A stretch of 64,000 bases of DNA from Ignavibacteriales bacterium (lineage in GTDB: Bacteria; Bacteroidota; Ignavibacteria; UBA10030; UBA6906). The first letter of the stretch is position 1, and each line of letters starts with the position of its first letter. This document shows, piece after piece, positions 16,987-63,558 of this stretch. The stretch is taken from assembly GCA_037441705.1 (NCBI GenBank), contig JBBIRR010000003.1, positions 32,831-96,830 of the forward strand, written 5' to 3'. Under the pieces are notes generated by a model. The model made no database searches. It saw only the letters and a program-made list of their open reading frames with translations, and was not told the DNA's origin. Position numbers and translations under genes: made by a program.

Positions 16987-17024
16987 CTAATAACCTCCAA
17001 AAGGGGACGGGCGGCGACGCATGG

Positions 17025-17234
17025 CTACGCCGGATCATACCCGCCCGGGTGCAAAGGGTGACACTTGCTGATGCGCTTCAAGGACTTCCAAACACCTCGG
17101 GCTGGGCCATACTTCGAAATTGCATCGAGTGCATACTGAGAGCACGTGGGATAAAACCTGCAGGTGTTCGGCGGAAGCAACGGTGATATCACTGCTCGGT
17201 ACGCTCGAATGAGGGATGTCAGCATCAGCGTCAT
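17025..17234 (-). CDS. yidD: Membrane protein insertion efficiency factor YidD
   Basis: [32 protein letters not shown]...[11 protein letters not shown] is the YidD signature. The start is chosen at the internal Met, which gives an ATGA overlap with the rnpA stop (tcat at 17231-17234). The track ORF extends to 17270. Confidence 0.8.
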
Positions 17235-17635
17235 GACCCCTGTCTCAGCCGCATGTGTAACATTCGGCAAATCTCACTCACCTCTCTCTGAATGTCTGCC
17301 AATGAGAGCCGCCTCACTGAAACATCATCCCGACCTTTGAAATACAGCACCAAGGCAATTCTTGTATGTGAAGATGGGAGGGACGCTTGCAAGGAGCGGT
17401 ATTCTATTCGCATCGCTTCGCGCATCAGTCTTTTCAACCTGTTGCGACGAACGGCATTGAAATTTCTTGAGGAAACCTTGAATCCGACCAAGACTTGTGC
17501 ACGCTCGCCGCCGTGACCTGGCCCAACCGGATCAAGGACATAGCGACAACGCAACCATCGTGTATCGATTGTTCTACCGGCTTCGGCTATCCGCTTGAAG
17601 AGATCGCGTCCGCGCAGAATCTCCGTTTTCTTCAA
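17231..17635 (-). CDS. rnpA: Ribonuclease P protein component RnpA
   Basis: 134 aa basic protein with the RNR motif ([13 protein letters not shown]). It lies between rpmH and yidD as in most bacteria. Confidence 0.8.
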
Positions 17636-17657
17636 GCCCGGGCTCTTGCTATCCGTC

Positions 17658-17804
17658 CTATCGCTCGTCGCTTACCGTTAACTTCTTCCTGCCTTTGGCC
17701 CGACGACGAGCAAGGACTGCTCTTCCTTGCTTCGTTGCCATCCGTGCACGAAAGCCGTGCGTGTTTCGCCTTTTCCGCTCGTGTGGTTGGAACGTTCGTT
17801 TCAT
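17658..17804 (-). CDS. rpmH: 50S ribosomal protein L34
   Basis: Manual minus-strand translation gives [48 protein letters not shown], a canonical L34. It is below the ORF-track size cutoff. Coordinates are +/-2 nt. Confidence 0.85.
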
Positions 17805-18009
17805 CGTGTACTCCAGAAATCTATTAACACTATGATGCTCGGAACGCTGACAGACTTTGCCCCGCTAAGGTGTGTGTTTACGACCTTGCGAATTGTGCGA
17901 CAATAAAGGTAACCAACCGCTCCCTGAGAAACAACAAGATTTTCCACTTTTCGCTTGCTAAGCGCTGTTCCATGTTGTATAATTGCGTACAACCCTCCGT
18001 CAACCGCAG

Positions 18010-18224
18010 TGTTGATAACTCGTGAGTAGTTTGCTTTTCGTTCGCTATTTATGACCCTATGGTTTCACACGAACTGGTTGTCTGATACTTCTGTGTCACC
18101 ATTAGGCCTTATCAGGAAATGTGTTACATCCTTTGATATTGCTTTATCCACATCGTGGATAACCGCTGGATAACTCATGAAAAATTTCTTGGCTCCCTTG
18201 TCCTGTGAACAGAGTTGTGGATAA
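18010..18224 (+). promoter_or_regulatory. DnaA-box cluster in the rpmH-dnaA intergenic region (putative oriC upstream part / dnaA promoter)
   Basis: Perfect TTATCCACA at ~18144-18152 and perfect TGTGGATAA at ~18216-18224. One-mismatch boxes are CGTGGATAA (~18154) and TGTTGATAA (~18010), with weaker ones nearby. All fall within the 470-nt non-coding gap. Confidence 0.6.
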
Positions 18225-18275
18225 CTCAGCCAAGTGCGTTGAAAAATCATCTGACACATTATCCCTATTGGTGTT

Positions 18276-19742
18276 ATGATCGAGATGTTACATTCTACTG
18301 CAGAGCCCACAGAGTTTGAGCAGGCGCAGCGTATGTGGGCCGCATGCCTCGGCATGCTTAGCGAGCACATCAACTCACAGACCTTCAAGACGTGGATCGA
18401 ACCTCTGACCCCCCTTGGTCTCGAGGCGAGTGTGCTTACGCTACGCGTCCCAAGCCAGTTCTTTTACGATTGGATTGCCGAGCACTATGAGGAACTGATT
18501 ACCTCCGTGGCGTCGCATGTGCTGGGCCGACCTGCCACGATCTGTTATGAAATCGCCACCGAGGATCCTCTCGTGGACACTGAGCCGGAGACCCATCCTG
18601 TGCCCCAACAATCCCGAACGGAGAAGCGCGTCTTGCCGGCTCAATCAGAGTCTTCGCGCATGGGAAACCCGTCTCCCGCGAGTGCTCACCGAAACTCGAT
18701 GAGCTTCGAATCGCATTTGAATTACCGGTACACGTTCGAGAACTTCATCAAAGGGGAAAGCAACCAGTTTGCTCGAGCCGCCGCCACGGCCGTTGCCAAC
18801 AATCCGGGTGGAACGACGTTCAACCCGTTGGTCATCTACGGTGGGACGGGGCTCGGCAAGACCCACCTGGTGCAAGCCATCGGTAATTACGTTGCCCAAC
18901 ATAACAAGAACAAACGAGTCATCTACGTTTCGAGCGAGAAGTTCACCGTGGAGTTCGTCGACGCAATCCAAAGCGATCGCGTCAACAACTTCGCAGCGTT
19001 CTATCGCAGCATGGATATTCTCATTGTCGATGACATCCAGTTTTTTGTCGGCAAGGAGAAGACGCAGGATATGTTCTTCCACACCTTCAACGCGCTGTAC
19101 AATCTCTCCAAGCAGATTATCCTCTCGTCCGATAGGCCGCCCAAAGATCTTGACGGACTTGACGATCGACTGATTTCGCGCTTTCAATGGGGTTTAACGG
19201 CAGACATCCAGCCGCCGGACCTCGAAACACGCATTGCTATTCTCCAGCACAAGGCAAAGGACCAGCAGATCGAACTGCCGGGTGACGTGATTGAATGTCT
19301 CGCTGCGAACGTTACCACAAATATTCGTGAGCTTGAGGGCTGCCTTATCAGCTTGCTGGCGAAAGTATCCCTGGAAGGAAAAGAGCTCAATGTGGATCTC
19401 GCTCACGAAGTACTCAAGACGGTCGTCGGGCAGGTGAAATCACCCATTACAATCGAAGAGATTCAACGGACCGTCTGCGAGTATTTTGGGATTCCGGAAG
19501 ACCTCGTTCGTGCAAAAACACGAAAGCAAGAGATTGTAAATGCCCGGCAGGTTGCTATGTACCTTGCCAAGGAGCTCACTAACTCGTCGCTCAAGACGAT
19601 CGGCACACACTTCGGCGGGCGAGATCACAGCACCGTTATTCACGCCTACCAGTGCGTTGAAGATCAGATGAAGATCGATTCAAAATATCGGTCCACCGTC
19701 GAGCAGATCAAGCGTCGCCTTGAAACACGTACGCGAGTGTAA
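18276..19742 (+). CDS. dnaA: Chromosomal replication initiator protein DnaA
   Basis: 488 aa. AAA+ motifs (GGTGLGKTHL; DDIQF) and a domain IV DNA-binding helix-turn-helix (VAMYLAKELTNSSLKTIGTHFGGRDHSTVIHA). Confidence 0.95.
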   Translation: MIEMLHSTAEPTEFEQAQRMWAACLGMLSEHINSQTFKTWIEPLTPLGLEASVLTLRVPSQFFYDWIAEHYEELITSVASHVLGRPATICYEIATEDPLVDTEPETHPVPQQSRTEKRVLPAQSESSRMGNPSPASAHRNSMSFESHLNYRYTFENFIKGESNQFARAAATAVANNPGGTTFNPLVIYGGTGLGKTHLVQAIGNYVAQHNKNKRVIYVSSEKFTVEFVDAIQSDRVNNFAAFYRSMDILIVDDIQFFVGKEKTQDMFFHTFNALYNLSKQIILSSDRPPKDLDGLDDRLISRFQWGLTADIQPPDLETRIAILQHKAKDQQIELPGDVIECLAANVTTNIRELEGCLISLLAKVSLEGKELNVDLAHEVLKTVVGQVKSPITIEEIQRTVCEYFGIPEDLVRAKTRKQEIVNARQVAMYLAKELTNSSLKTIGTHFGGRDHSTVIHAYQCVEDQMKIDSKYRSTVEQIKRRLETRTRV

Positions 19743-19765
19743 GACCCGCGGGAAGTTTTGGTTCG

Positions 19766-19809
19766 TACTCCATTCTGTTGTAGTGCAGGATGGAGTATTT
19801 CTTTTCTTG
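19766..19809 (+). terminator. Rho-independent terminator after dnaA
   Basis: Inverted repeat TACTCCAT...ATGGAGTA followed by TTTCTTTTCTTG, immediately 3' of the dnaA stop. Confidence 0.55.
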
Positions 19810-20039
19810 TGATGAGTTTTTTCTTGGGTTCGGAGTTGTTGTACACACAATGTGCGCAAGTGTGTTGGTGAGGTGAAGAATGGCGTTGACAGCAGGTTGA
19901 TCAGTTTGTTCCTCTTCCGCTGATGTGCCCGCACGGCGTTCTGATGTTGATATCAACGAAGCTTACTGACATCTCATACCATCAATTTACCACTTGAGAC
20001 GATGGCTTGCTTCGCTTCAGGGTCAATCGACAACTTTGT

Positions 20040-20297
20040 TGACGAGTGCACCTGTCAACATATTCACATCCTTTATTACTACTCTTTCTTTATCCATATC
20101 TAGAAAGAAAACAATTATTACACTCATACTTGGAGACAAGCGAAGGCGGTCTAACTACGACGATCATCTTTCTATCACCTTACAGGTCAACAGGTTACTG
20201 GAAAAACATTTCTTTGAAGTCTCCCCCTTTTTGAGTAAATTTATGCTGTTTGAAGCGTCTTCATGACCCCTCATTTTCCTTACCGAAGGAGTTTAGG
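20040..20297 (+). other. Putative oriC DUE region between dnaA and dnaN. AT-rich tract with a DnaA-box-like site.
   Basis: A ~60-nt AT-rich stretch (ctttattactactctttctttatccatatctagaaagaaaacaattattacac) sits in an otherwise ~60% GC genome. It contains TTATCCATA (one mismatch to a DnaA box) at ~20089. GTTGAC/GTCAAC palindromes lie nearby. This is the classical dnaA-dnaN oriC location. Confidence 0.4.
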
Positions 20298-21413
20298 ATG
20301 AAATTCACAACAACCACCGGTGAACTTCAGCGCGCACTATCCAAGGTCAGCAGTGTCGTACCCGCGAAGTCGACGATGCCGATTCTCGAGAATATTCTGT
20401 TCGATCTTGTCAACGACACGCTGGTACTGACGGCTACGGACATGGAGATTACGCAAACGATTTCTCTTGCCGTGAAGGGGACTGAAGATGGAAGGATAGC
20501 GATACCGTCAAAGCGACTCATCGACACAGTACGCGCACTTCCGGATACGGAGATTGCGTTTACAATTGATACTACGTCTCAGAAGATAAAGCTCACAACG
20601 AAGAACGGCGAGTACAGCATCACTGGAGAGGATGCGAAGGATTTTCCGCCTGTCCCCATCATGACAAACAAAGATGAACTCGTCATTGATGGTGCCGTTC
20701 TGCGGAAGATCATCAATCGGACTGTGTTTGCCGTAAGTACCGATGAGTTGCGGCCTGCGATGATGGGTGTTTTGCTGCAACTCAAACCGAATGAATTACG
20801 GGCCGTCTCAACTGACGGGCATCGTCTTGTTCGTTTTTCGTACAAGCTGCCAAAGGATGGAGGAATAAAGGGCGATTTCATTGTACCCGCAAAAGCACTG
20901 AACGTTGTGAGCAGAACGCTTGAAGGTGGCACAGTAAAACTCGGCATCAGTCAGACGCATGTTCGTTTTGACTTCGATTCCAGCATTCTTGTTTCACGGT
21001 TGATCGCCGAAACGTATCCGAACTACGAAAGTGTCATTCCTACAGAGAATGACAAGCTCTTGACGGCTAATCGTGAGGAGATGATGTCTGCAATCCGTCG
21101 CGTTGCGCTGTATGCAAGCGCAACAACGCATCAGATCAAACTCTCGCTCCGAAAGAATCAGCTCACCGTAAGTGCTCAGGATATCGACTTCGGCGGTGAA
21201 GCGAAAGAAAAATTAGAGTGTGAATACGATGCAGATGATCTCGATATCGGATTCAATTCCGTCTACCTGGTTGACATTCTCTCCCATCTCGAGAGCGAAG
21301 CGGTCGCGTTCAAATTCAGTTCGCCTACCCGTGCCGGGGTCGTCACGCCCGCAGGCGAACACGTGGATGAGGATGTTCTGATGCTTGTGATGCCCGTACG
21401 CTTGAATGTCTGA
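20298..21413 (+). CDS. dnaN: DNA polymerase III subunit beta (sliding clamp) DnaN
   Basis: MKFTTTTGELQRALSKVSSVVPAKSTMPILENILF is typical of DnaN. An AAGGAG RBS precedes the internal ATG. The track ORF starts 48 nt upstream. Confidence 0.9.
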   Translation: MKFTTTTGELQRALSKVSSVVPAKSTMPILENILFDLVNDTLVLTATDMEITQTISLAVKGTEDGRIAIPSKRLIDTVRALPDTEIAFTIDTTSQKIKLTTKNGEYSITGEDAKDFPPVPIMTNKDELVIDGAVLRKIINRTVFAVSTDELRPAMMGVLLQLKPNELRAVSTDGHRLVRFSYKLPKDGGIKGDFIVPAKALNVVSRTLEGGTVKLGISQTHVRFDFDSSILVSRLIAETYPNYESVIPTENDKLLTANREEMMSAIRRVALYASATTHQIKLSLRKNQLTVSAQDIDFGGEAKEKLECEYDADDLDIGFNSVYLVDILSHLESEAVAFKFSSPTRAGVVTPAGEHVDEDVLMLVMPVRLNV

Positions 21414-21427
21414 TAATCAAGGAGTGA

Positions 21428-22576
21428 ATGAGAGTCACGCACTTGCGGCTGAAACATTTCAGGAACCACACCGACACATCGCTGACGTTTGGAGAGGGCA
21501 TCAATGCGTTCCTGGGAGATAACGGACAGGGGAAGACCAACGTGCTGGAGGCGCTTTCGTACCTCAGCCTCACGAAGAGTTTTTATGCCTCCGGCGACGG
21601 GACGGTTCTGCAGATCGGACGCGAGACGTTTGAGGTAGAGGGAACGATTGTGTCGGACAACGGGGTGGGGCATCAAGTACGAGTCACGTACAATCGTGGC
21701 GGTGAAAAGACGTTTACGATCAACAGCATCAAACCTGAGACACACGCCTCTGTTATCGGTCGCTTCCCGATCGTTATTCTCTCGCCGGAGAACAATGCAA
21801 TAACCTTCGGTGGGCCAGCCGAGCGCCGGAAGTTTCTCGATCTGCTGCTCTCGCAAATCAGTCGCACCTACCTCGAGGATCTGCTGGAGTACCGTCGAGC
21901 GCTCAAGCAGCGCAACAAGCTCCTGGCCGACGCACGAAACTCTCAGACATTCATTCCGGAACTTCTCGAACCGTGGACGGCTGCCCTTGTGGACCACGGC
22001 GCACGGATCATTCGTCAACGGCGCGTTTTCGTGGAAGAATTCCGCAGCGAGGTCCAGAAGGCATATCGAGAGCTTGTTGGAGAGGCGACGGGCAGCCGGG
22101 TCAGCGAGTCTCCCGACATGCGCTATTCATCCCTCCCGGGGATCGAGCAGACCGCTACGCTTGAGGAAATCAAGCGCCTGATGGCCGATGAGCTGCAGGA
22201 GCGGGTTGGCGAAGAGCGACGCAGAGGAACCACACTCGTCGGTCCGCATCGCGATGATCTGTACCTAACAATCAATGGCATCAGCATGCAGCAATTTGCA
22301 TCGCAGGGACAGCACAAGACGATGCTGATTGCTCTGAAGATTGCGGAGTTTCATTATCTCAAAGAGCGCCGTGGAGAAGTTCCGGTGGTGCTTCTTGATG
22401 ACGTGTTCAGCGAATTGGATGAACATCGCTCTCGCTTGCTGCTAACGGCCGCGTCGAGACTCGGGCAAACGTTTATCACCACGACGGACGAAGCCGTTTT
22501 CCGCGACGTCATTCGCTGGGACGGTACGCATCGAAAGTTTTATGTCGAAGCAGGAAACGTTACGAGCGTGCATTGA
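21428..22576 (+). CDS. recF: DNA replication and repair protein RecF
   Basis: MRVTHLRLKHFRNH...FLGDNGQGKTNVLEA Walker A, plus an ABC-type signature and Walker B (VVLLDDVFSELD). Confidence 0.9.
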   Translation: MRVTHLRLKHFRNHTDTSLTFGEGINAFLGDNGQGKTNVLEALSYLSLTKSFYASGDGTVLQIGRETFEVEGTIVSDNGVGHQVRVTYNRGGEKTFTINSIKPETHASVIGRFPIVILSPENNAITFGGPAERRKFLDLLLSQISRTYLEDLLEYRRALKQRNKLLADARNSQTFIPELLEPWTAALVDHGARIIRQRRVFVEEFRSEVQKAYRELVGEATGSRVSESPDMRYSSLPGIEQTATLEEIKRLMADELQERVGEERRRGTTLVGPHRDDLYLTINGISMQQFASQGQHKTMLIALKIAEFHYLKERRGEVPVVLLDDVFSELDEHRSRLLLTAASRLGQTFITTTDEAVFRDVIRWDGTHRKFYVEAGNVTSVH

Positions 22577-22920
22577 TGCAGAGGATAGGGCTCATGGCGG
22601 AGAACAAACGCAGACGACGTGTGCAGGAAGGAACGAAGAAGCAACCTGAAGCGTTCGGCAGCGCATGGGAAACGCTGGTGCATCAGTTGGGTATCACGAA
22701 GAAGATGAAGCAGGCGTTGGTGCTCAGCTCGTGGGCCGAGATCGTGGGCGAACAGATCGCGCGCGTGACGGAAGCAGAGCGCATCGAGAACGGAATTTTG
22801 TTCGTGAAAACCCTGAACGCCCCCTGGCGCAACGAGCTGACAATGCGCCGGCTGCAGATCATAGAAAAATTGAATGCAGCAGCCGGAAGCAAGGTCGTGA
22901 AAGAAATCCGATTTCGATAG
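22576..22920 (+). CDS. DUF721-domain protein, DciA-like (putative replicative-helicase operator), in the recF-gyrB slot
   Basis: ~114 aa basic protein. The segment WETLVHQLGITKKMKQALVLSSWAEIVGEQIARVTEAERIENGILFVKT resembles DUF721. Its position between recF and gyrB matches Rv0004/DciA in other phyla. TGATG overlap with the recF stop. Confidence 0.6.
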   Translation: MQRIGLMAENKRRRRVQEGTKKQPEAFGSAWETLVHQLGITKKMKQALVLSSWAEIVGEQIARVTEAERIENGILFVKTLNAPWRNELTMRRLQIIEKLNAAAGSKVVKEIRFR

Positions 22921-22937
22921 GATGCATGAGTTTTTGA

Positions 22938-24991
<2,054 letters not shown>

Positions 24992-24992
<1 letters not shown>

Positions 24993-25213
24993 TGATCAAG
25001 AACGCTCGTATCCTTGAGCAGCTCGACGCGGAGTACGATCGAGAACATCTCCGGACGCTGGAGCAGAAGTATGCAATTCTCGATGCACTCTATCTTCTTG
25101 CGAAAGATGCGGGCCACTTCGATCCCAACGATACCTCGATCGACGAGCTGGACATTGAGCTTGCAAGAGTCTTGAATGCCGACCTTTCAAAAGCTGCTGG
25201 CAAGAATTGCTGA
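24992..25213 (+). CDS. Hypothetical small protein (73 aa), translationally coupled to gyrB
   Basis: Its ATG overlaps the gyrB stop (TGATG). Helical and acidic, with no recognisable domain. It may be the partner of the adjacent nucleotidyltransferase remnant. Confidence 0.35.
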
Positions 25214-25319
25214 GGCGTTCGATCAGCATCGTATTCCGTATATGATTATTGGAGGCGTCGCGGCAATCCGGTACGGTCGGCCACGCTTGACGGATGATAT
25301 CGATATCACCTTAGTTTGA
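25176..25319 (+). pseudogene. Truncated minimal nucleotidyltransferase (MNT/Pol-beta-like) gene fragment, 47 codons
   Basis: The frame-0 ORF MPTFQKLLARIAEAFDQHRIPYMIIGGVAAIRYGRPRLTDDIDITLV* carries the GG-x-A...G-x-R-x-T-x-D-I-D-I signature of small nucleotidyltransferases. It stops after ~47 aa, ~30 nt before the gyrA RBS, whereas family members are ~100-170 aa. It overlaps the preceding small ORF. Confidence 0.4.
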
Positions 25320-25350
25320 GGCTCTCGAAGGCACACGAAGGAAAACATAA

Positions 25351-28146
25351 ATGGCAACACTGAACGAACGGATCATCCCCGTTGATATTGAAGATGAGAT
25401 GAAGGGATCGTACATCGACTACTCGATGTCGGTCATTGTGGCGCGTGCGCTGCCCGACGTGCGCGACGGCTTGAAGCCGGTTCATCGCCGCGTGTTGTTC
25501 GGCATGCACGAGCTGGGTCTCGCGTCCAACCGCCCCTACAAGAAGTCTGCCCGCATCGTGGGCGAGGTGCTCGGCAAATATCACCCCCACGGCGACGCGG
25601 CGGTGTACGATACGATGGTGCGCATGGCGCAGGATTTCTCGATGCGCTACCCGCTGGTGGACGGACAGGGGAACTTCGGTTCGATTGACGGCGACTCACC
25701 TGCGGCGATGCGGTACACCGAGGCGCGTCTGTCGCGCATTGCCGAGGAGATGCTGCGCGATCTGGAGAAGAACACCGTTGACTTCCTTCCCAACTTCGAC
25801 GACACGCTGAAAGAACCCACGGTCCTGCCGGCCCTCGTGCCGAATCTGCTCGTCAACGGCACCAGCGGCATTGCCGTCGGCATGTCCACCAACATCCCGC
25901 CGCACAATCTCTCCGAAGTGGTTGATGCCTGCATTGCCTACATCAAGGACGAGAAGATCACGAGCGAGAAGTTGATGAAGTACATCAAGGCGCCTGACTT
26001 CCCGACCGGCGGCATCATCTACGGCTACGAGGGCGTCAAGGAAGCGTACCTGACGGGCAGAGGCAAGATCATCGTCCGGGCAAAGGCAACGATCGAAACG
26101 GACAAGAAGGATCGCCAAAACATCATCATCACCGAAATACCCTATCAGGTCAACAAGCTCAGCCTCATCGAGCGCATCGCCGAGTTGGTGAACGAGAAGA
26201 AGATCGACGACATTGCAAACGTCAACGACGAATCGGACCGGGATGGGTTCCGCATCGTCGTCTCGCTGAAGAAGGATGCGAACGCCCAGGTCGTGCTGAA
26301 CAGTCTGTACAAACACACGCAGATGCAGACCACCTTCGGCGTCATCATGCTCGCGTTGGTGGACGGCAGGCCGCAGATTCTGACGCTGCGCGATCTGATC
26401 GAGAAGTTCATTCAGCATCGCAACGAAGTGGTTGTGCGGCGCGCGAAGTACGAGCTGGACGAAGCCGAGAAACGTGCGCACATCCTCGAGGGCTTCATCA
26501 TCGCGCTCGACAATATCGACGCCGTTATCAAGCTGATCAAAGGGTCGAAGGATTACGATACCGCGAAGAACGGCTTGATGAAGAAGTTCAAGCTCTCGGA
26601 GATACAGGCAAAGGCCATCCTCGACATGCGCTTGCAGCGGTTGACGGGCCTGGAGCGAAAGAAGATCGAAGAAGAGTATCGCGAGACGATCAAACTCATC
26701 GAGCAGTTGAAAGCGCTCCTGGCGAGCAAGAAACTGCAGATGCAGCTCATCGAGAAGGAGCTGCTGCAGGTGAAGGAGAAGTACGGGGACGAGCGCCGCA
26801 CGGAGATCGTCTACAAAGCCGAAGAGTTCAGCATTGAAGATACGATCGCAGAGGAAGAAGTCGTCATCACCATTTCGCACGGCGGGTACATCAAGCGCTT
26901 TCCGGTGAGCGGCTATCGGCGGCAGTCGCGTGGAACGCGCGGAGCGACCGGCGCTGCAACGCGGGAAGACGACTTCATCGAAGCGGTGTTCATCGCCTCC
27001 ACTCACGAACACATCATGCTCTTCACCGATCAGGGACGCTGCTACTGGCTGAAGGTGCATGAAATTCCCGAAGGCGGCCGGGCAACGCGCGGAAAATCCA
27101 TTGCCAACCTGATCTCGAAAGGTCCGCACGAAACGATCGTTGCCTACGTTGCGGTGAAGAGCTTCGTCGAAAATCTGAACGTGGTGATGGTAACGGAACA
27201 GGGCGTGATCAAGAAGACCGCGCTTGCCGAGTTCAGCAATCCCCGCAAGACCGGCATCGGCGCGATTGGCCTGGACAAGGGCGACAGGCTCGTGGATGTC
27301 CACCTGACCGATGGAAAGAACGACGTGGTGATCGGCACAGCTGAAGGCGTCGCGATTCGTTTCCACGAATCGGACGTGCGCGTGATGGGGAGGGCAGCCG
27401 GTGGTGTCCGTGCCATCAAGCTCGAGAAAGGTGACAAGGTGATCGGTGCAGTCGTTCTCCGCAGAGCAGGAACGTCGATCCTCGTCGCAACCGAGAACGG
27501 CTACGGCAAGCGCAGCGCTACCGACGACTATCGCGTGCAGTCGCGCGGCGGCAAAGGCATCATCACGATGAAGACCAACGAGAAGACGGGACGCATGGTC
27601 GCGATCAAAGAAGTGGCCGAGACGGACGACGTGGTCATCGTGACAGCCAACGGCATCATCCTGCGGCAGCATGCTTCAGAGATTCGACTCGCGGGGCGCA
27701 ACACGCAGGGTGTACGTCTCATCAAACTCGTCGAAGGCGACAAAGTTTCGGACGTTGCTGCCGTCCCCGCTGAAGAGGAAGAGCCGACCAACGGTGCAGC
27801 AACCATGCAAACTGCCGGCGGCGAAAAGACAAAAGCCGACGGCGACCAGCAATCACTCTTTGAAGGAGAGGATTCAGAAAAAAAAACTCTGAAGGGGGGA
27901 CAGGAGAAGAAGAGTGAGCCGTCGGGGACGAAGACCGAAACAACGACATCCCCAGTCAAGCAAACGCCAACGAAGCCGGAAAGAAAGAAGGTGCAACCGA
28001 AAGCTTCACCCGCTGTGAAGAAGACATCAGGCGGAACGAAAAAGATTCAGAAACAGCAGAAGCAAACCGGCAAGCCCGCGAGGAAACCTCAATCGAAGAA
28101 GCTCTCGAAAAAACCCGCGCCGAAAGCAGGGGGCAAGAAGAAATAG
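25351..28146 (+). CDS. gyrA: DNA gyrase subunit A with an unusual lysine-rich C-terminal tail
   Basis: Catalytic-Tyr region and a QRDR-like region ([18 protein letters not shown]), a GyrA-box-bearing beta-pinwheel CTD, then a ~125-aa low-complexity K/P/T/E tail ([42 protein letters not shown]). Confidence 0.95.
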
Positions 28147-32463: not shown

Positions 32464-33474
32464 TTAGTTGGGGGATTTCATACGGAGCGATTCCGGCTGA
32501 ACCTTGTAACGTTCGATGCAGGTCAGCAGAGCAGAACGGAGACGCTCGGCGTCGATATGCTGCGCCCGCGCGGGGTCCTTGCGCTTCCAGTTCTCGATGC
32601 GCTCCTGCGTCAAACCAAGATCCATCAAACGCCGGGCGTTTTCGTGCCTGCCGACAGCGGCAAGAGACATCACCTGTTCCATAAAGTGGGTGAGGGAAAG
32701 ATCTGCCGCAAGAGAATCGAGACTGACGGGCAGTGCAAAACGGTGTGGGTATAAGTCGGAGTGATGCTTGTACACTTTCTCCTTCACGTCCCAGGTGTAC
32801 AGCAGCGTGACCCGCGGGAAATCGTCGGGGCGAAACGCCGGATCCCCCTCGAAGAAATCATCAACAGCCAGACACTCGGGATAGGGAGTTTTGTCGATGT
32901 TATCTGTCACGACCGGTTCCAGGGGCACGCCTTGTGGAGCGCCGCGACGATACCGTTGTGGAACGTTGCCCGCAACGAGCACCGAGCGAAGCCGTTCCTC
33001 TTTCGTCACTTCATAGATCGAAAGCGAATAACAGAGCAGCGGCACGAGCATACCTTCGGGCGGCTTGCATGCACCGCTGATGACGAATTTCGTGGTACCC
33101 GAACCGTCAAAATCCGCGGCAAGAGCAAATGAGATACTGGCCTTATCCAGAAACACGGAGTCCTTGACGGCAACGGTCGAATCATTCACCACTCTGTAGA
33201 GCCGCACTTGCGGCAGACGTTTGCCGCAGGGTGCGGCTGATAGGCCCGTCGAACCCTTTGGCGCGATCGCCTCGCGGTCGACAAACGCTGCTAACACATA
33301 GCTCCGCCCGTTCTGTTTGATGATGCGGTAGTCCTTGAAATAGTAGCAGTCCTTCGCCATCCGATACGTTTCGTCGAGCAGAACGGTGGGAGCCTGCGGC
33401 GCGCGACTCTGCGAACGAACAGACGGAGCGACAATACATGCTGCGAACAGCAACATCATACAAAAAGAACGCAT
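32464..33474 (-). CDS. Hypothetical secreted protein
   Basis: Start chosen at the internal Met with the signal peptide MRSFCMMLLFAACIVAPSVRSQS. The track ORF extends 89 codons further upstream and overlaps the next gene. No recognisable domain. Confidence 0.5.
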   Translation of the reverse strand: MRSFCMMLLFAACIVAPSVRSQSRAPQAPTVLLDETYRMAKDCYYFKDYRIIKQNGRSYVLAAFVDREAIAPKGSTGLSAAPCGKRLPQVRLYRVVNDSTVAVKDSVFLDKASISFALAADFDGSGTTKFVISGACKPPEGMLVPLLCYSLSIYEVTKEERLRSVLVAGNVPQRYRRGAPQGVPLEPVVTDNIDKTPYPECLAVDDFFEGDPAFRPDDFPRVTLLYTWDVKEKVYKHHSDLYPHRFALPVSLDSLAADLSLTHFMEQVMSLAAVGRHENARRLMDLGLTQERIENWKRKDPARAQHIDAERLRSALLTCIERYKVQPESLRMKSPN

Positions 33475-33664
33475 GGGCAAACCCTCATGTTCATTTTTGA
33501 TCATAAGGAAAAAGCATGATACCTGCCGTGAAGGCTTAGTATCAACATACAAAACCATCGAGGGGAAAACAATAATCGCCGCGGATGTGGTGCAGGGAAG
33601 AGATAACTGATGGCGACGGAACACGGATGACGACCGCTGCGCCATCCGTGTCCGCGGCGCGCTG

Positions 33665-34642
33665 CTACTGCTGGCGAGGCGTAAACTTCTCCACGCGGTT
33701 TCGGACGGCAGGAATCGTGCGCAGGTATTGATAGATTGCACCGAGGTCTTCGTCGGTCATCCCCGCGTACATCGTCCACGGCATAGGCGTATTGAAGTCC
33801 GCCGGGGTAAGTGTCGCCTGCATCGTTTCAGGAGCAAGGTACGACCGGAAGCGCGCGAGGAAATCGTCCCTGGTCCACAACCCGATTCCCGTCTCCTGGT
33901 CGGGCGTGATGTTCAAGGCACGGACGGTGCCGGCCGGAAGCAGGAACGGATTTCCTCCGGCGAGCATCATGCCGGCGATATCCTGCCCCCGGTCATCGCG
34001 CGGCGTATGACAGCCCTCGCAAGCGGCAATTGTCGTTAGGTACTTTCCGTATTCCACCGGATCGTTCTTGTGCGGCTCCGATGACGGGTTGAAAGATTTC
34101 GGCGGGATGGTGTTGACAATGAAGTTGAGCGGAAAATTCAGGGACGATGCCTTCACCGCGTTCTCAATCGGGGTGAGGGATTTGATATACGCAACGATCG
34201 CGTAAGCATCCTCCTGCGTCAGCCTGTTGTACATCGGATACGGCATGAGTGGAAACATTGCGCTGCCGTCGCGCTTGACACCGACCGTGAACGCCCGCAG
34301 CAACTCGCCGTCCGTGTATTCTCCGATGGCCGCGGGAGTGATGTTCGACGACACGAGCATGCCGACGGCTTCGGCGAACTCCTGTCCGCCCTTGCCCTCC
34401 GTGCCGGCGACGATAGGGCCTGAGAACTTCGTCCAATCCCTTGTGGAATGACAGTCAATGCACACCGTAACGTGATGCGCCAGGTATTTGCCGCGCGCAA
34501 GGCGTTCCGGCGTCCGCTCGACCGTTATCGTCGGCGCCGGGTCGACATCCGGATACTTGAAATTGAAATACGTGAGGAACACGACTGCGGTCAGGACAAC
34601 AGCACCCACAATCCCGCCAAGGATTTTGAGAACCTTCCTCAT
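33665..34642 (-). CDS. Membrane-anchored diheme c-type cytochrome
   Basis: N-terminal TM helix and two CXXCH motifs (CIDCH and CEGCH), each in a ~120-aa cytochrome c-like half. Confidence 0.7.
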   Translation of the reverse strand: MRKVLKILGGIVGAVVLTAVVFLTYFNFKYPDVDPAPTITVERTPERLARGKYLAHHVTVCIDCHSTRDWTKFSGPIVAGTEGKGGQEFAEAVGMLVSSNITPAAIGEYTDGELLRAFTVGVKRDGSAMFPLMPYPMYNRLTQEDAYAIVAYIKSLTPIENAVKASSLNFPLNFIVNTIPPKSFNPSSEPHKNDPVEYGKYLTTIAACEGCHTPRDDRGQDIAGMMLAGGNPFLLPAGTVRALNITPDQETGIGLWTRDDFLARFRSYLAPETMQATLTPADFNTPMPWTMYAGMTDEDLGAIYQYLRTIPAVRNRVEKFTPRQQ

Positions 34643-42829: not shown

Positions 42830-43975
42830 GTCATTCTGAGCGAGCGCAGCGAGCGAGGAATCCAGAACGAGCATCAGCCTGAATCTTGAACCCCAAACCT
42901 CAAACCTCGAACCGACCCGCGCCTCACGCCGCCCGCTCTTCCGTCACGGCACAAGGTTGCGCACAGAAGCCGTGATGTCCGGTCGCCGTCGTCACCCTGA
43001 GCGCAGTCCCGCCGCTTTTCAGGCGGGACGGAGTCGAAGGGTGTTCCGCGCAATTGTGTAGGGACACGGCTCCGCCGTGTCCTAATGTGAGGAACGCTGA
43101 ATGGTTGCGTTGATGATCCGCGGCGTGTACACGCGTAAAGCAGGACATGCCGGAGGCATGTCCCTACAATCATGTTCGCCGGGTCTGGATGCTTCGCGCT
43201 TGGAAAGCAGCGCTCAGCATGACGGAGTAGTCCACTTCCCGCCCTTCCGTCACGGCACAAGGTTGCGCGCGTAAGCCGTGACATCCGATCGCTTCGTCAC
43301 CCCGAGCGCAGTCCCGCCGCTTTTCAGGCGGGACGGAGTCGAAGGGTGGATGCTTCGCGCTTGGAAAGCAGCGCTCAGCATGACAGTGTTGGCCAGTGCA
43401 ACCTCCGCGTTGCGTACTCGTGGGTCACGTAGTGACCTCACGACGATAGCCCGACCTTTCAAGGTCGGGATACCAATCACAGGCCCATCATACCCGTCGC
43501 GTAGCGACGGAATGAAAACTTGGTGATCACGAGAGAAGCGCGAAACGGAGTGTCAACGTGGCGAGGCGATACAGGCCGCCCCTACGGGGCTTACGTTCTT
43601 TTAGGCATTGTCAGCGCTACAAACAGGTCGTCCCTACGGGACTTGCGAGGAGCACGAGTGTTGATTTGAGCATCCGCTCCGTAGGAGCGGTACTGTCTGT
43701 AGAACTCAACGGCAAGGACATCGCGCAAGCCCCATCGGCGCGACCTGATCATGTTCCGATCCGCGAATCCTGAATCCGCCCGCCGAACCCCGAACCTCGA
43801 ACCATGCATCCGCGATTGAACATGGCGACCCGGGTCTCACGCCGCCCGCCCTTCCGTCACGGCACAAGGTTGCGCGCATAAGCCGTGACGTCCGATCGCT
43901 TCGTCATTCTGAGCCTCGCTTTTCGGAGGCGAAGAATCCAGAACGAGAATCAACCTGAATCCTGAATCTCGAATC
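42830..43975. repeat. Intergenic nest of modular structured short repeats (REP/MITE-like): families X, Y, Z, W plus extra hairpins
   Basis: Unit X (GTCATTCTGAGC...GAATCCAGAACGAG-ATCA-CCTGAATCyTGAA) at ~42830-42895 and ~43902-43975. Unit Y (CGCCGCCCGCyCTTCCGTCACGGCACAAGGTTGCGC...AAGCCGTGAyrTCCGrTCGC..CGTCAC) at ~42927-43043, ~43236-43347 and ~43840-43905. Copies A and B of Y continue with GAGCGCAGTCCCGCCGCTTTTCAGGCGGGACGGAGTCGAAGGGTG. Unit Z (GGATGCTTCGCGCTTGGAAAGCAGCGCTCAGCATGAC) at ~43187-43223 and ~43346-43383. Unit W (CCGyCCCTACGGGrC) hairpins at ~43575, ~43627 and ~43674. Several further perfect hairpins lie between them. Confidence 0.7.
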
Positions 43976-44139
43976 CTGCATCGTAACTCCCCACCACAAC
44001 CCCCGAACGCGAATCCGTCGCTCCAGCATTCCGGGGTAGCCAGATGCGGTTCGTTGATTTTCCCTATGCTTTTGGTTACTTTGAATCCCAGTTCTGTCCC
44101 GGCACTAAAGTCGGGAGTGGTATTTGTTGAGAAGCCTTC

Positions 44140-45273
44140 ATGCCCGATCAGACATCCGAACCCTCCGGCCAGCAACAACCCGAGCGCCCGCAGCGTCCCT
44201 ACCGGGGTCGCCATTACTATCGTGACCGGCGACGGGAAGCCGAAACGACCACGGCCGAGACGGAAGGACAACCGACGCAGACGCCGCAGGTGCCGCCGCA
44301 GCAGCGACAGGAGCAGAGACAACACGGTCAGCAGCATCATAAAGGGATCGACATCAGTGTTGTCATCCCGCTCTATAACGAAGAGGAGTCGCTCAAAGAA
44401 CTCCACCAGCAGCTCCGCTCCACGTTGCAGCGGATGCGCGTTCGCTATGAACTGCTGTTCGTTGACGACGGCAGCACGGATCGTTCGTTCAATGTGCTGC
44501 GCGACGCGAAGCGATTCGATGGTCGCGTCAAAATCATCCGCTTCCGCCGCAACTACGGCAAATCTGCAGCGCTTGCCGTCGGCTTCGAGAAAGCTCAGGG
44601 CACGTACGTCGTTACCATGGACGCCGATTTGCAGGATGATCCGGCAGAGATTCCTTCGCTGATCAAGAAACTCGAAGAGGGCTATGATCTGGTCTCGGGA
44701 TGGAAGAAGGTACGCCGCGATCCCATCACGAAGACAATTCCCTCCCGCTTCTTCAACTTCGTTACGTCGTTGATGACGGGAATAAAGATTCACGACTTCA
44801 ACTGTGGATTGAAGGCGTATCGCAACGAAGTGGTGAAGGCAATTCAGCCGTACGGCGAGCTTCATCGCTATCTGCCCGTGCTTGCGCACAACGCGGGGTT
44901 TCGGGTGGGGGAGATGGTGGTGCAACACCGGCCGCGCAAGTACGGCAAAACGAAGTTCGGGGTGGGGAGATTCTGGAAAGGGTTTCTCGACCTTCTGACG
45001 GTGCTCTTTACGACGCGCTATTTCCGCCGTCCGCTCCATCTGTTTGGTTTTTGGGGGATGGCGTGTGCGCTGACCGGCATGGTGATCGACGGCTGGCTTG
45101 CCATCGAGTGGCTTCAGGGCAAGACGGCATTGAGCAACCGGCCGCTCTTCCTCGGTGGTATTCTTCTGATCATTGTGGGGATTCAGTTCGTGTCGATCGG
45201 TCTTCTCGGTGAGATGATTAGCAAGTCGAAACGCACGACCGACGAATATACAATCCGCGACTACATCAAGTAA
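44140..45273 (+). CDS. GT2 polyprenyl-phosphate glycosyltransferase (GtrB/CsbB/ArnC-like) with a Q/R/P-rich N-terminal extension
   Basis: ISVVIPLYNEEESL...LLFVDDGSTDRS...YGKSAALAVGFEKAQGTYVVTMDADLQDDP (DXD), and two C-terminal TM helices as in GtrB/CsbB. The first ~70 aa are low complexity (QQQPERPQRP...QQRQEQRQHGQQHH). Confidence 0.8.
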   Translation: MPDQTSEPSGQQQPERPQRPYRGRHYYRDRRREAETTTAETEGQPTQTPQVPPQQRQEQRQHGQQHHKGIDISVVIPLYNEEESLKELHQQLRSTLQRMRVRYELLFVDDGSTDRSFNVLRDAKRFDGRVKIIRFRRNYGKSAALAVGFEKAQGTYVVTMDADLQDDPAEIPSLIKKLEEGYDLVSGWKKVRRDPITKTIPSRFFNFVTSLMTGIKIHDFNCGLKAYRNEVVKAIQPYGELHRYLPVLAHNAGFRVGEMVVQHRPRKYGKTKFGVGRFWKGFLDLLTVLFTTRYFRRPLHLFGFWGMACALTGMVIDGWLAIEWLQGKTALSNRPLFLGGILLIIVGIQFVSIGLLGEMISKSKRTTDEYTIRDYIK

Positions 45274-45358
45274 GCGAAATGATATCTGAACTCTCGAGGC
45301 GCAGCTCCTGTCCGCCCTTGCTCCTGCTGCGCGATCGAATGTTCCTATCCGCTCTGCC

Positions 45359-46456
45359 ATGACGATCTCGTACGAAACGCTCAAGACCGACTGCCGGTGG
45401 TTTGTGGGACAGGTGCCGTGCAGGCCTCACAAGCAGCACGGTGTGCATTGTGTTGACGAAGCAGGGAATGACTGTCCGCATTACGAACGGCAGATCTCCA
45501 ACATCCTTATCATCAAACTCGGTGCGCTGGGCGATGTCATTCGCACGACGCCGATCCTGCGGCGCTTGCGGGCAGAGTATCCACAGGCGCGTATCTGGTG
45601 GGTGACGCTCTCACCCGAAGTGGTGGAGCCGTTTGTTGATGTCGCGCTTCCGCTGGATGCCGAACATTTCCCGGCGTTGCAGTCCACGCAGTTCGACATC
45701 ATTTACAACCTCGACAAAGAAACCGAAGCCTGCGGCCTGATGGCCTCGCTTTCGGCGCGCGTCAAGAAAGGATTCACGCTTGTCCACGGCAAGCCGGCAC
45801 CGATCGATGCCGACGCAGTTCATAAGTTTATGACGGGGGTCTTCGATGATCTCAACAAAGCCAACACCAAGAGTTATCCGGAAGAGATTTTCGAAATCTG
45901 CGGCTTTCGCTTTGCCGGCGAAAAATATCTGTTAGATGTTCCGCCTGCAGATGCGTACCGATGGAAATTGCCGAAGAAGAAGCCTATCATTGGATTGAAC
46001 ACGGGTTGCGGCGGACGATGGGTTTCCCGCTTGTGGCCCGAGAAACACTGGGTAGCGCTTGCGCGCACGCTGAAGAAGGCTGGTTACGTGCCGCTGCTGT
46101 TGGGCGGAGAACAGGAGGATGCAAAGAATCGGCGTATAGCGCGATTGAGCGGCGCGACGTATCTCGGGCATTTCCCGTTTCGACAATTCATCTCCTTGGT
46201 TGACCAATGCGATCTCGTCGTGACCGCCGTGACGATGGCGATGCATGTGACAATTGGATTGAACAAGAAGATCGTGTTGTTCAATAATATCTTTAACAGG
46301 CACGAGTTCGAGTTGTATGGATTGGGGGAAATTTTGGAGCCGGACTTCGACTGCACATGTTATTTCTCACCAACGTGTCCCAACAACTGCATGCAGTACA
46401 TTTCGGTGGATCGCGTGTTCGAGACCGTTCGATCTCTACTCCGCCGTGATCACTAA
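45359..46456 (+). CDS. Glycosyltransferase family 9 (heptosyltransferase-like)
   Basis: NILIIKLGALGDVIRTTPILRRLRAEYPQARIWWVT N-terminus, and the ...GGRWVSRLWPEKHWVALARTL... GT9 C-domain. Confidence 0.7.
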   Translation: MTISYETLKTDCRWFVGQVPCRPHKQHGVHCVDEAGNDCPHYERQISNILIIKLGALGDVIRTTPILRRLRAEYPQARIWWVTLSPEVVEPFVDVALPLDAEHFPALQSTQFDIIYNLDKETEACGLMASLSARVKKGFTLVHGKPAPIDADAVHKFMTGVFDDLNKANTKSYPEEIFEICGFRFAGEKYLLDVPPADAYRWKLPKKKPIIGLNTGCGGRWVSRLWPEKHWVALARTLKKAGYVPLLLGGEQEDAKNRRIARLSGATYLGHFPFRQFISLVDQCDLVVTAVTMAMHVTIGLNKKIVLFNNIFNRHEFELYGLGEILEPDFDCTCYFSPTCPNNCMQYISVDRVFETVRSLLRRDH

Positions 46457-61326: not shown

Positions 61327-61667
61327 GGTGTTCACGTTCAGGGAGCTTCACGCGCGCAAACGTATCGGTTGGTGATGACGGTGGAGTTGTGAGATGCCGG
61401 TGGTGCTGCGCGCGTTAGGCGCCCGAAGGGTGCCCGCCGTTTTGGGGCGGGCAGTGCTGAGCGCTGTTCAGCGAAGCACCGCAGCGGAAGCGGAGCCCGC
61501 AGGGCGCCGACGGCGCTGCGAAGCGTTCAGCGCCGGAACGCCCAACATTTCTCTTGTTTGCGCGTGCTCCGTGTAGGTTGATTCTGTGCTCCGCCTTGTC
61601 TATATTGCACGTGCTTCTCAACGACCGTTCAACTGTTTATTCATTAGCTTAGAGGAGAGAATCTCTC

Positions 61668-61964
61668 ATGCCAGACCTATCTTTGGACGCGCTTGGGATG
61701 GTGGAAACGAAGGGGCTGGTTGGTTCGATCGAGGCGGCCGATGCGATGGTAAAAGCTGCACGCGTGACCCTGATCGGGAAAGAGGTGATCGGTGGTGGAT
61801 ATGTTACCGTCATGGTGCGGGGCGATGTCGGTGCCGTGAAAGCGGCGACGGATGCAGGCGCAGCGGCAGCGCAACGCGTAGGCGAGTTGGTGTCGGTGCA
61901 TGTGATCCCGCGGCCGCATGCCGACGTTGAGATGATTCTCCCCAAGCGTCCCGCCGACAAGTAA
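61668..61964 (+). CDS. Bacterial microcompartment shell protein, BMC-H (PduA/EutM/CcmK family, Pfam00936)
   Basis: [77 protein letters not shown] matches the PduA-type BMC-H hexamer protein across its full length. AGGAGAG RBS upstream. Confidence 0.9.
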
Positions 61965-62019
61965 GATCCGCATCTTCGAACGCGCCGGCTCCGAATGGGG
62001 CAGGCCGGCGCATGAGCGA

Positions 62020-62562
62020 TTGCCTATGATGACCCTGGAATATGCACTGGGCATGGTCGAGACCCGCGGCCTCGTGGGTTCCATCGAGGCTGCCGACGTG
62101 ATGGTGAAGACTGCCAACGTTCGCCTGCTCGATGCGGAATACATCCGCAACGGGTACGTCACGATCAAGTGTGTCGGTGACGTAGCGGCGGTGAAAGCGG
62201 CCGTGGAGGCGGCGGCGGCAGCGGCACAGCGTGTCGGGCAGTTGATTGCCACGCACGTGATCCCGCGCCCTGCAGCGGAGGTAGAGCCGATCATGCGCAG
62301 GCAAGCGAAGGGGTTGGGGCCAGCATCCCCTACGGCCACAGGGTCGGGGTCGTTTGCGGAGGATAGGCCCGCCGCGCCCGATCTGTTCCAGGCGAGCGCC
62401 GATGATAATGAGTATCGCGCTCAGCTTGAAGCCATGACCGTGCATCAACTGCGAACGCTTGCCCGTGAAGTGGGGGGACTGGGGATTTATGGGCGAGAGA
62501 TTTCCAAAGCCGACAAGAAGCAGTTGATCTCCGAGCTTATGAAGAGACGAAAGGGCGCGTAG
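62020..62562 (+). CDS. BMC-H shell protein fused to a ~90-aa C-terminal extension ending in a Rho_N/SAP-like helical motif
   Basis: N-terminal 90 aa ([76 protein letters not shown]) form a BMC-H domain. The tail LEAMTVHQLRTLAREVGGLGIYGREISKADKKQLISELMKRRKG resembles the Rho termination factor N-terminal (Rho_N) helix-extended motif. Confidence 0.85.
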   Translation: MPMMTLEYALGMVETRGLVGSIEAADVMVKTANVRLLDAEYIRNGYVTIKCVGDVAAVKAAVEAAAAAAQRVGQLIATHVIPRPAAEVEPIMRRQAKGLGPASPTATGSGSFAEDRPAAPDLFQASADDNEYRAQLEAMTVHQLRTLAREVGGLGIYGREISKADKKQLISELMKRRKGA

Positions 62563-62616
62563 CCGCATGGACGGCACATGTCAACTCCATCGGAGCCTCG
62601 CTGATGGAGTTTTTTA

Positions 62617-63558
62617 TTGTGTCGGTGGATGATGAAAGAGCGGAATATCCATATCGTTGTGGCTACAACCTTCTTTGCTCTCCTGCTCTGGCTATCGGTG
62701 AGTCTGAGCGATCAGTATCAGATACACGTGCGTGTGCCGGTGGTGGTGCAGAATGTTCCGTCGGGGCGGGCAGTCAGCAGCCTTCTGCCGCATGATGTGC
62801 GCGTCACCTTCAACGATTACGGCTGGCGTTTGGCGAAGGTCGTCTGGGGGACGCAGGTGGAGTGGGCGATCGACATGAACCTTCTGCCGCCGCAGCAACA
62901 CGCGCTCACGGTGCGCGACCTTGCGGAACAGCTTGGCAGCCGATTCGGTCTCCAGCCCCTTTCGATGATGCCTGATTCCCTCTACATCATGCTGGACACG
63001 GTGGAGGTCAAACGGTTGCCCGTGGTGCCGCGCTACGCGGCAACGTTTCGTGAGGGATATGGACAGATTGGTCCGGCAGTCGTTCGGCCTGAGAGCGTTA
63101 CCGTTCGCGGCGCGAAGCGCATCGTCCGTGCGCTGCAATCATGGCCTACGGAACTCCGGCGCTTCGAGCAACTGCGGCAGCCGGTTGATGTGGTCGTGCG
63201 ATTGGCCGATACAGCGGCGATGCTCGAGTTCACGCCGAAGGAGGTACGGCTTCACATCGTGGTTCAGCAGTTTGCGGAAAAGACGTTCACGCAAATTCCT
63301 CTTGAACTGACCTCGGTGCCACCGCATCGTGAAGTCATCCTCAGTTCTCGGAACGTGGACATCGTGATTCGCGGAGGCATCGAGCAGTTGGCGGCGGTGG
63401 AACCGGCATCTATCCGGGCGACGATTGATTACCGCGTGATTCTGGCCGATACGAGCGGGATTGTGGAGCCTGAGGTGAGCGTTCCTTCAGGGCTTCGGAT
63501 TGTGCGCGTAAGCCCGGAGCGCATTCAATACGTGATACGAAGGAAGCTTTTGTTCTAA
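62617..63558 (+). CDS. YbbR-like domain membrane protein (CdaR-like)
   Basis: N-terminal TM (IHIVVATTFFALLLWLSV) followed by 3-4 degenerate YbbR-type repeats (e.g. PAVVRPESVTVRGAKRIVRALQSW...VDVVVRL; IVIRGGIEQLAAVEPASIRATID). Moderate confidence. Confidence 0.5.
   Translation: MCRWMMKERNIHIVVATTFFALLLWLSVSLSDQYQIHVRVPVVVQNVPSGRAVSSLLPHDVRVTFNDYGWRLAKVVWGTQVEWAIDMNLLPPQQHALTVRDLAEQLGSRFGLQPLSMMPDSLYIMLDTVEVKRLPVVPRYAATFREGYGQIGPAVVRPESVTVRGAKRIVRALQSWPTELRRFEQLRQPVDVVVRLADTAAMLEFTPKEVRLHIVVQQFAEKTFTQIPLELTSVPPHREVILSSRNVDIVIRGGIEQLAAVEPASIRATIDYRVILADTSGIVEPEVSVPSGLRIVRVSPERIQYVIRRKLLF

Follow-up and report, generated by a model that had tools for sequence, protein, structure and literature searches.

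A Standard and an Extended BMC-H Gene from an Ignavibacteria-Like Bacterium as the Probable Hexamer Pair of a Fragmented Microcompartment of the FRAG1 Type

Fragmented (FRAG) bacterial microcompartments (BMCs) were described in the catalogue of Sutter, Melnicki, Schulz, Woyke and Kerfeld (2021, Nat Commun 12:3809, PMC8217296, Supplementary Data 2) as types whose shell genes are spread over as many as six places in the genome, in most cases remote from enzyme genes, with a BMC-P triplet in common. One of them, FRAG1, comprises 57 shell-protein-only loci, is most prominent in Ignavibacteria and also occurs in Kryptonia, Bacteroidetes, Chlorobi and Rhodothermaeota; of its two BMC-H proteins one is standard, and the other has a large, ordered extension at its C-terminus that is "analogous to EutK" (PMC8217296). 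This study concerns two adjacent BMC-H genes in a 64,000-nucleotide stretch of DNA from an Ignavibacteriales assembly (GCA_037441705.1, contig JBBIRR010000003.1), the whole of which is called the window here. A previous sequence-only reading of the window had presented them as a rare orphan pair with no BMC locus in view. The analysis reported here suggests instead, with a probability of roughly 0.8, that in this Ignavibacteria-like bacterium they are the usual hexamer pair of a fragmented microcompartment of the FRAG1 type.

According to the same catalogue, FRAG1 genomes carry three vertex (BMC-P) genes elsewhere, belonging to the green, grey and orange clades, and a pair of PduS and PduT homologues is found in 24 of the 57 loci; no enzymes were recognisable in these genomes, and searches for encapsulation peptides were negative (PMC8217296). 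The phyloxml tree of the catalogue places the green BMC-P of FRAG1 in the viridian3 subclade, shared with the main-locus BMC-P of the HO (Haliangium ochraceum) type, and a FRAG1 satellite BMC-P from a "Bacteroidetes" assembly of 60% G+C appears in its BMC-P tree. A literature search found FRAG1 named in no paper beyond the catalogue and its preprint.

The two genes of the pair are as follows.

61668..61964, + strand: BMC-H 1 (protein 1), 98 amino acids; hexamer subunit of the canonical PduA/EutM-like kind; its motifs are the DAMVK lysine, a GGGY pore loop and IPRPH.
62026..62562, + strand: BMC-H 2 (protein 2), 178 amino acids; BMC domain with a C-terminal extension of about 88 residues.

The earlier identification of two adjacent BMC-H genes holds, as both open reading frames (ORFs) are present on the + strand at these coordinates and both products match the Pfam family PF00936 end to end. 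Protein 1 scored 101.1 bits (E 3.3e-29) over model positions 1-75 of 75, and residues 7-82 of protein 2 scored 94.3 bits (E 4.3e-27) over the full 75-position model, the cut-off (gathering threshold) of the family being 24.5 bits. The ORF table starts gene 2 at a TTG at 62020, and alignment of homologues places its start at the ATG at 62026. Protein 1 matched PduA (7mmx, E 7.5e-43) and Clostridioides difficile EutM (4axj, E 4.9e-42) in the PDB over about 89 residues with few mismatches. Alignment to the solved PduA, EutM and HO BMC-H proteins gave the hexamer-edge motifs DAMVK and IPRPH for protein 1, and DVMVK and IPRPA for protein 2. The sequence-only reading had overlooked the diagnostic extension of about 88 residues that sets protein 2 apart from a plain BMC-H protein.

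Protein 1 passes the cut-off of the NCBIfam EutM equivalog model (NF012018; 137.8 bits, cut-off 133), and protein 2, at 93.2 bits, stays under it. No eut gene cluster was found in the window or the next 10 kb. Because no pdu or eut genes are in view, naming protein 1 "EutM" would mislead and would be a functional mis-annotation. This carries a lesson for annotation, as an equivalog cut-off is passed here in the absence of any ethanolamine pathway.

The pore loop of protein 2 reads E-Y-I-R-N-G-Y (62137-62157, approximately residues 38-44), and its counterpart in PduA reads E-K-I-G-S-G-L. In an alignment of 23 homologues the Asn and Gly of this loop are invariant and the Arg/Lys is conserved, and the loop predicts a pore that is positively charged and narrower. 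More than 120 full-length homologues of protein 2 were found, at 59-100% identity; a more distant orthologue, in related locus L059 (9593-10159), has another pore loop.

In an alignment of 23 full-length homologues, the BMC domain of protein 2 is conserved, the linker behind it is variable, and an end of about 50 residues is strongly conserved; this end can be written as EY..QL..MTVHQLR.LAR...GL.I.GR.ISKA.K..LI.ELMK. The two parts of the extension are these.

62311..62382, + strand: linker of BMC-H 2, approximately residues 96-119; variable in length and sequence, with gappy and unconserved alignment columns; predicted to be disordered.
62404..62553, + strand: C-terminal helix-extended-helix domain of BMC-H 2, approximately residues 127-176; Rho_N/SAP-like.

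In the AlphaFold model, linker residues 96-119 have a pLDDT (per-residue confidence) below 50 and the domain that follows is confidently folded into four helices. Structurally it comes closest to Rho_N and SAP domains; further matches are DEK, the SAP domains of FAN1, PIAS1, Hcc-1 and Ku70, and the LEM domain of emerin. The scores are modest, and unrelated helical proteins reach the same range, as is expected at 53 residues. The families compared were Rho_N (PF07498) and SAP (PF02037). Of 17 orthologous domains, 15 match Pfam Rho_N (best E 4.5e-6), and the copy in the window itself falls just short of the cut-off, with 21.3 bits (E 2.6e-4; cut-off 24.9 bits). Modelled in this way, the extension is a disordered linker followed by a Rho_N/SAP-like helix-extended-helix domain. 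This fold class is typical of nucleic-acid binders, and the domain could bind nucleic acid. A profile of the C-terminal domain found no sequence match among PDB chains at E up to 10, and the NCBIfam EutK model (NF012010) scored 67.6 bits (cut-off 218), with model positions 4-84 of 166 covering the BMC domain only. Because the EutK model covers only the BMC domain, far under its cut-off, and the PDB holds no match to the rest, the likeness of protein 2 to EutK is one of architecture and not of descent.

The assignment to FRAG1 follows from the combination of a standard protein 1 with an extended protein 2, which is the FRAG1 signature, from the lineage, and from shell genes that are remote from enzymes. 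The pair shares with the published description its two BMC-H genes, including the extended one, its lineage and the lack of clustering of shell genes with enzymes. It also resembles a satellite locus in the sense of Axen et al. (2014, PMC4207490) in consisting of two contiguous genes with PF00936 only and no PF03319; according to the catalogue, FRAG types have no organised main locus (PMC8217296). The surroundings were searched for the remaining parts of a microcompartment, in the window and in 92 related loci (numbered L001 to L092) up to 10 kb from the pair. No BMC-P domain (PF03319) was found there at E up to 1 with a hidden Markov model (HMM) that was made from BMC-P representatives of 80-125 residues together with grey- and orange-type members, and that recovered all BMC-P proteins in six control loci. 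Searches with tblastn and with an HMM of four sequences likewise gave no BMC-P match in the window or the related loci; the EutN sequence used is identical to that of PDB 2hd3. Searches with tblastn found no AldDh, PduS, class II aldolase, DeoC, RpiB or BMC-T gene in the window or the 92 loci, and the sole matches of the BMC-T queries were the pair itself. The PduS/PduT pair was absent from the window and from within 10 kb of the pair in the 92 loci. A further 80 metagenome loci, which include 37 more contexts of the pair, contained no BMC-P either. The statement that no BMC locus is in view therefore stands for the window, the next 10 kb and the 92 loci, with respect to BMC-P, BMC-T and BMC enzymes. 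The sequence-only reading had also advised a look at the genes to the right of the window, and the 10 kb past that edge contain neither a vertex gene nor a BMC enzyme.

Several points weigh against the FRAG1 reading. The assignment was set by the published verbal description and by taxonomy, and not by the type-specific HMMs of the catalogue. Searches for the BMC-P triplet, dominated by cyanobacterial CcmL and by HO-type proteins of Polyangia, did not recover it in this genome or in any other with the pair. The BMC-P contexts that could be inspected (three look-ups, atypical matches) are SPU- or HO-like main loci of other organisms. Shell formation, nucleic-acid binding and the activity of the promoter and terminator described below are inferred from sequence and models. 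Support for a BMC-P triplet that goes with the FRAG1 pair comes from the literature, in which Melioribacter roseus has seven BMC-P genes at five loci, and four of these loci are classed as satellite or satellite-like (Axen et al. 2014, PMC4207490).

A search of a representative library gave 1428 BMC-P clusters, of which the best 150 were listed. Two further observations were made in passing. Two predicted metagenome proteins, P0400 (179 amino acids) and P0401 (173 amino acids), each contain two tandem BMC-P domains, the first green-like and the second grey-like; they may be genuine fusions or the product of neighbouring genes that were merged. Additionally, product names at JGI seem to be swapped, as homologues of protein 2 (BMC-H) are named "CcmL/EutN" and true BMC-P proteins (PF03319) are named "CcmK/EutM".

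The pair had been thought to be rare, but this view did not survive the comparison. In all, 282 species-representative genomes encode the C-terminal domain of protein 2, the pair is present in many metagenome contigs, and the type is already catalogued. Among the 282 genomes the best 80 are all metagenome-assembled genomes of Ignavibacteria, Ignavibacteriota, Chlorobi or Bacteroidota, a lineage that fits the Por_Secre_tail proteins adjoining the locus. Exactly two BMC domains, adjacent to each other, are encoded in 88 of 90 loci. A YbbR-like gene lies directly 3' of the pair in 61 of the 76 loci with enough flank, PdxJ lies within 2.5 kb of it in 36 of 67, and a YfhO-like gene lies 5' of it in 32 of 72; these counts come from tblastn at E < 1e-3, which divergent copies may escape. 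Across 78 species loci the identity of protein 1 has a median of 94% and a minimum of 86%, whereas in the same loci the YbbR-like protein is 39%, PdxJ 40% and the YfhO-like protein 55% identical, and ten contigs from other samples encode protein 1 without a single residue change. An identity of 94% next to neighbours at 39-55% is expected of a self-assembling protein with multiple interfaces. Given the 282 genomes, the synteny and the identity of protein 1, the arrangement is common, ancient within its lineage and very strongly constrained.

The pair also has regulatory signals of its own, which are listed here.

61578..61606, + strand: predicted sigma-70-type promoter of the pair, TTGATT, a 17-nucleotide spacer containing TGCTCC, and TATATT; found by consensus scan, 62 nucleotides 5' of gene 1.
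61652..61659, + strand: Shine-Dalgarno-like sequence GAGGAGAG, about 10 nucleotides 5' of the ATG of gene 1; read from the sequence.
62583..62617, + strand: intrinsic-terminator-like hairpin, AACTCCATCGG, loop, CTGATGGAGTT, then a T run; 11 pairs; found by terminator scan.

Among related loci, every one of the 80 distinct upstream regions has the pattern TTGAYN-N17-TATATT; the -10 element (TATATT) is invariant, and the -35 hexamer is TTGACA in 51 of the 80. With two mismatches permitted, it has a single match in the window. RGGAG occurs within 20 nucleotides of the start codon in 73 of the 80 regions. The sequence TGCTCC, or its complement GGAGCA, is enriched about 20-fold near the promoter (window 61540-61620; L001-L092). 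In 27 of 79 loci TGCTCC stands exactly 3 nucleotides past the -35 hexamer. About 45 of the 79 have one copy, in one orientation or the other, 9-25 nucleotides upstream of the -35, and more copies are found near the transcription start. TGCTCC/GGAGCA looks like a putative operator for a regulator.

The terminator-like hairpin begins 21 nucleotides past the stop codon of gene 2. It occurs in at least 30 related loci, one per locus and 20-25 nucleotides past the stop codon, with the consensus ACTCCAYYGG ... CYGRTGGAG followed by T5-9 and with loops that vary; in the near-identical contig L001 it lies at 10916-10948, and it is absent from L002-L005 and L015. The window contains one copy, against 0 expected by chance. 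Its stem, ACTCCATCGG / CTGATGGAGT, is kept across species in which the neighbouring proteins are only 39-55% identical, and compensatory changes are seen in 3 of the 11 pairs. One idea is that this stem is a candidate binding site for the Rho_N-like domain of protein 2. No known RNA family was found in or around the pair, the sole Rfam match being a chance snoRNA (E 0.8). That the GGAG of the hairpin serves as the ribosome-binding site of the YbbR-like gene was ruled out, because the conserved ATG lies 17-25 nucleotides further on.

From these signals the pair appears to be an autonomous two-gene transcription unit with its own promoter, a ribosome-binding site on gene 1 and a terminator. A private promoter and a ribosome-binding site that both look strong, together with the extreme conservation, suggest that the pair is highly and constitutively expressed and is not part of an inducible catabolic organelle.

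As a bait in metagenomes the promoter pattern retrieved 102 stretches, of which 80 were kept as loci; 37 are promoters of the pair and 40 stand ahead of other genes. There was no sign of a shared FRAG1 promoter, with no BMC-P in 448 kb of loci retrieved by the bait. About 17 metagenome contigs of another lineage carry a longer conserved block, TTGACATACTGCTCCCTTTTTCGTATATT then CAACnCAnCCnAAAGCGAGTTCTTATCA, ahead of unrelated genes (L099, L106, L112, L117, L119, L125, L129, L136, L138, L139, L151, L152, L159 and L165); the block resembles a repeated promoter and leader element.

A working model for a FRAG1 shell can be proposed from these data and the published description. Protein 1 would be the standard hexamer that makes up the bulk of the flat facets, and protein 2 would make another type of hexamer, whose pore is more polar and positively charged. 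Both termini of BMC-H lie on its concave face, which in solved shells points to the cytosol. Because of this orientation, a hexamer of protein 2 would probably display six Rho_N/SAP-like domains on flexible tethers at the shell exterior, where they may bind DNA or RNA or recruit a cytosolic partner. Pentamers from the BMC-P triplet, encoded at unlinked sites, would close the shell, and in some genomes a PduS/PduT pair would be encoded at other unlinked sites. To our knowledge, no cargo enzyme of FRAG1 is known. Assembly with distant BMC-P genes and the outward display of the domain are thus drawn by analogy with known shells.

A bolder extension of this model is that the structure is an enzyme-free constitutive compartment or lattice, coupled to DNA or RNA by the six outward Rho_N/SAP-like domains of each hexamer, which serves a housekeeping function and is not a catabolic metabolosome, with TGCTCC/GGAGCA marking a dedicated regulator. 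This is speculative and is considered unlikely. If it were true, FRAG1 would act as a housekeeping organelle, whose task might be positioning linked to the nucleoid or the sequestering of a nucleic acid or small molecule.

The sequence-only reading had left a choice between satellite shell genes of a distant BMC locus and BMC-H proteins co-opted for a role outside a compartment. The first of these, taken as a satellite of distant shell genes, comes near the truth, but a complete enzyme-bearing locus elsewhere is not what the literature describes for FRAG1, because FRAG1 genomes have vertex genes and no recognisable enzymes or encapsulation peptides. One version of co-option is that the pair works without vertices, forming open sheets, tubes or a lattice, a constitutive scaffold that the helix-extended-helix domain tethers to the nucleoid or RNA, with no closed metabolic compartment. 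The empty surroundings of the pair in the 92 loci and in the 80 metagenome loci with their 37 pair contexts would agree with such a scaffold, as would the failure of the catalogue to find enzymes or encapsulation peptides in FRAG genomes (PMC8217296), the housekeeping neighbourhood about 42 kb from dnaA, the near-invariant strong promoter, the extreme sequence conservation and the nucleic-acid-binder type of fold; in addition, no BMC-P gene turned up in the same genome as the pair. However, the BMC-P triplet is a common feature of FRAG1 genomes in the catalogue (PMC8217296), Ignavibacteria carry scattered BMC-P genes (PMC4207490), and protein 1 retains the standard interface motifs of closed shells. 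A triplet maintained across the class argues that vertices are in use, and the reported triplets make a scaffold of this kind very improbable.

It could also be supposed that the pair is an ordinary satellite, which supplies extra or alternative hexamers to an enzyme-bearing microcompartment elsewhere in the genome, such as one with the MIC4 aldehyde-dehydrogenase locus of some Ignavibacteria, much as CcmK3/K4 do for the beta-carboxysome. Satellite loci with shell genes only are common, 149 having been reported (Axen et al. 2014, PMC4207490), the reading of this genome was confined to the window and its 10-kb flank, and in Melioribacter roseus FRAG1 components occur alongside a MIC4 main locus (PMC8217296). 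In the catalogue, however, FRAG1 is a type of its own, the two are recorded as separate loci in that taxon, and MIC4 is rare (15 loci) and has its own set of BMC-H proteins (PMC8217296). The spread of the C-terminal domain over 282 species genomes and the fixed position of the pair in 92 loci also speak against a satellite, and the 94% identity of protein 1 together with a private promoter points to an autonomous, lineage-wide function and not to accessory tuning of a catabolic organelle. With a pair so broad and autonomous and MIC4 so rare, an ordinary satellite has a slim chance of being the right explanation, and the FRAG1 reading is preferred.

The neighbourhood of the pair is as the sequence-only reading had described it, and Pfam matches bear out both sides. 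Upstream are glycosyltransferases, methyltransferases and a flippase, which form a glycan-synthesis island ending in a YfhO-like protein; downstream are a YbbR-like protein with an N-terminal membrane anchor (62617-63558) and then PdxJ. The near-identical contig L001 (GCA_037444205.1) extends the view by 10 kb, with YbbR-like, PdxJ, BFN/UVR, ETF alpha/beta, S20, TPR, GT2, LptE, sigma-54 activator and MiaB genes. Another related contig, L007, is exact to the window. Replication-origin genes occupy 11682-28146 of the window, with mnmG, mnmE and yidC on the - strand and dnaA (18276-19742), dnaN, recF, gyrB and gyrA on the + strand; along the window these are followed by envelope genes and then by the glycan island. 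The G+C content of the window is 56%. The YbbR-like gene is separated from the pair by the terminator, and the linkage may be functional or merely an inherited gene order; in related locus L059 the pair is followed instead by another gene, which lies on the opposite strand. Two long ORFs, predicted only, have no Pfam match at E up to 1e-5 (32464-33741, - strand, 425 amino acids; 43837-45384, - strand, 515 amino acids).

The FRAG1 type itself was already known, the locus adds no new class, and a specialist would recognise FRAG1 in it. What is new here is the fold of the extension, the fixed position by the YbbR-like gene, the promoter with its TGCTCC/GGAGCA sequences, the terminator and the 94% identity of protein 1, and the breadth of the type is increased, with the C-terminal domain in 282 species genomes compared to 57 loci in the catalogue. 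FRAG-type microcompartments are the least understood of the bacterial protein organelles, being shell genes without recognisable cargo across phyla of abundant environmental bacteria. The present data sharpen FRAG1 to a system that is autonomous and apparently strongly expressed, nearly unchanged over hundreds of species, fixed in chromosomal position and equipped with a domain of a nucleic-acid-binding type. They also provide handles for experiments, namely a promoter motif, a candidate operator, a terminator, a domain for DNA- and RNA-binding tests, and cultured hosts such as Melioribacter.

The comparison with known systems places the pair closest to FRAG1. The CcmK3/CcmK4 satellite locus of the beta-carboxysome is likewise a BMC-H pair that stands apart from the other shell genes under its own regulation, but the carboxysome has a defined main locus and a known cargo, and neither is known for the pair. 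The main locus of Haliangium ochraceum encodes an aldehyde dehydrogenase, one BMC-H protein and three BMC-T proteins. This HO model shell resembles FRAG1 in its partly dispersed shell genes, its BMC-P triplet and its viridian3 BMC-P, and resembles protein 1 in the GGGY pore loop; FRAG1, in contrast, is without a main locus or a known enzyme. PduA and EutM align with protein 1 nearly residue for residue, including the interface lysine and PRPH, yet the pair differs from them in having no pdu or eut genes in view and in the PRPA motif and the Arg/Lys-Asn-Gly pore loop of protein 2. EutK, of the ethanolamine-utilisation microcompartment of Escherichia coli, consists of a BMC domain and a C-terminal putative nucleic-acid-binding domain. 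Protein 2 shares this architecture, in which a small helical domain, belonging to a fold class that binds nucleic acid, comes after a single BMC domain; however, it is not an EutK orthologue, its C-terminal domain has no sequence match in the PDB and is structurally closest to Rho_N and SAP domains, and no eut operon accompanies it. FRAG1 is the system with which the pair has no contradicting feature, as the two are alike in lineage, in shell genes that are remote from enzymes and in the lack of a signature enzyme.

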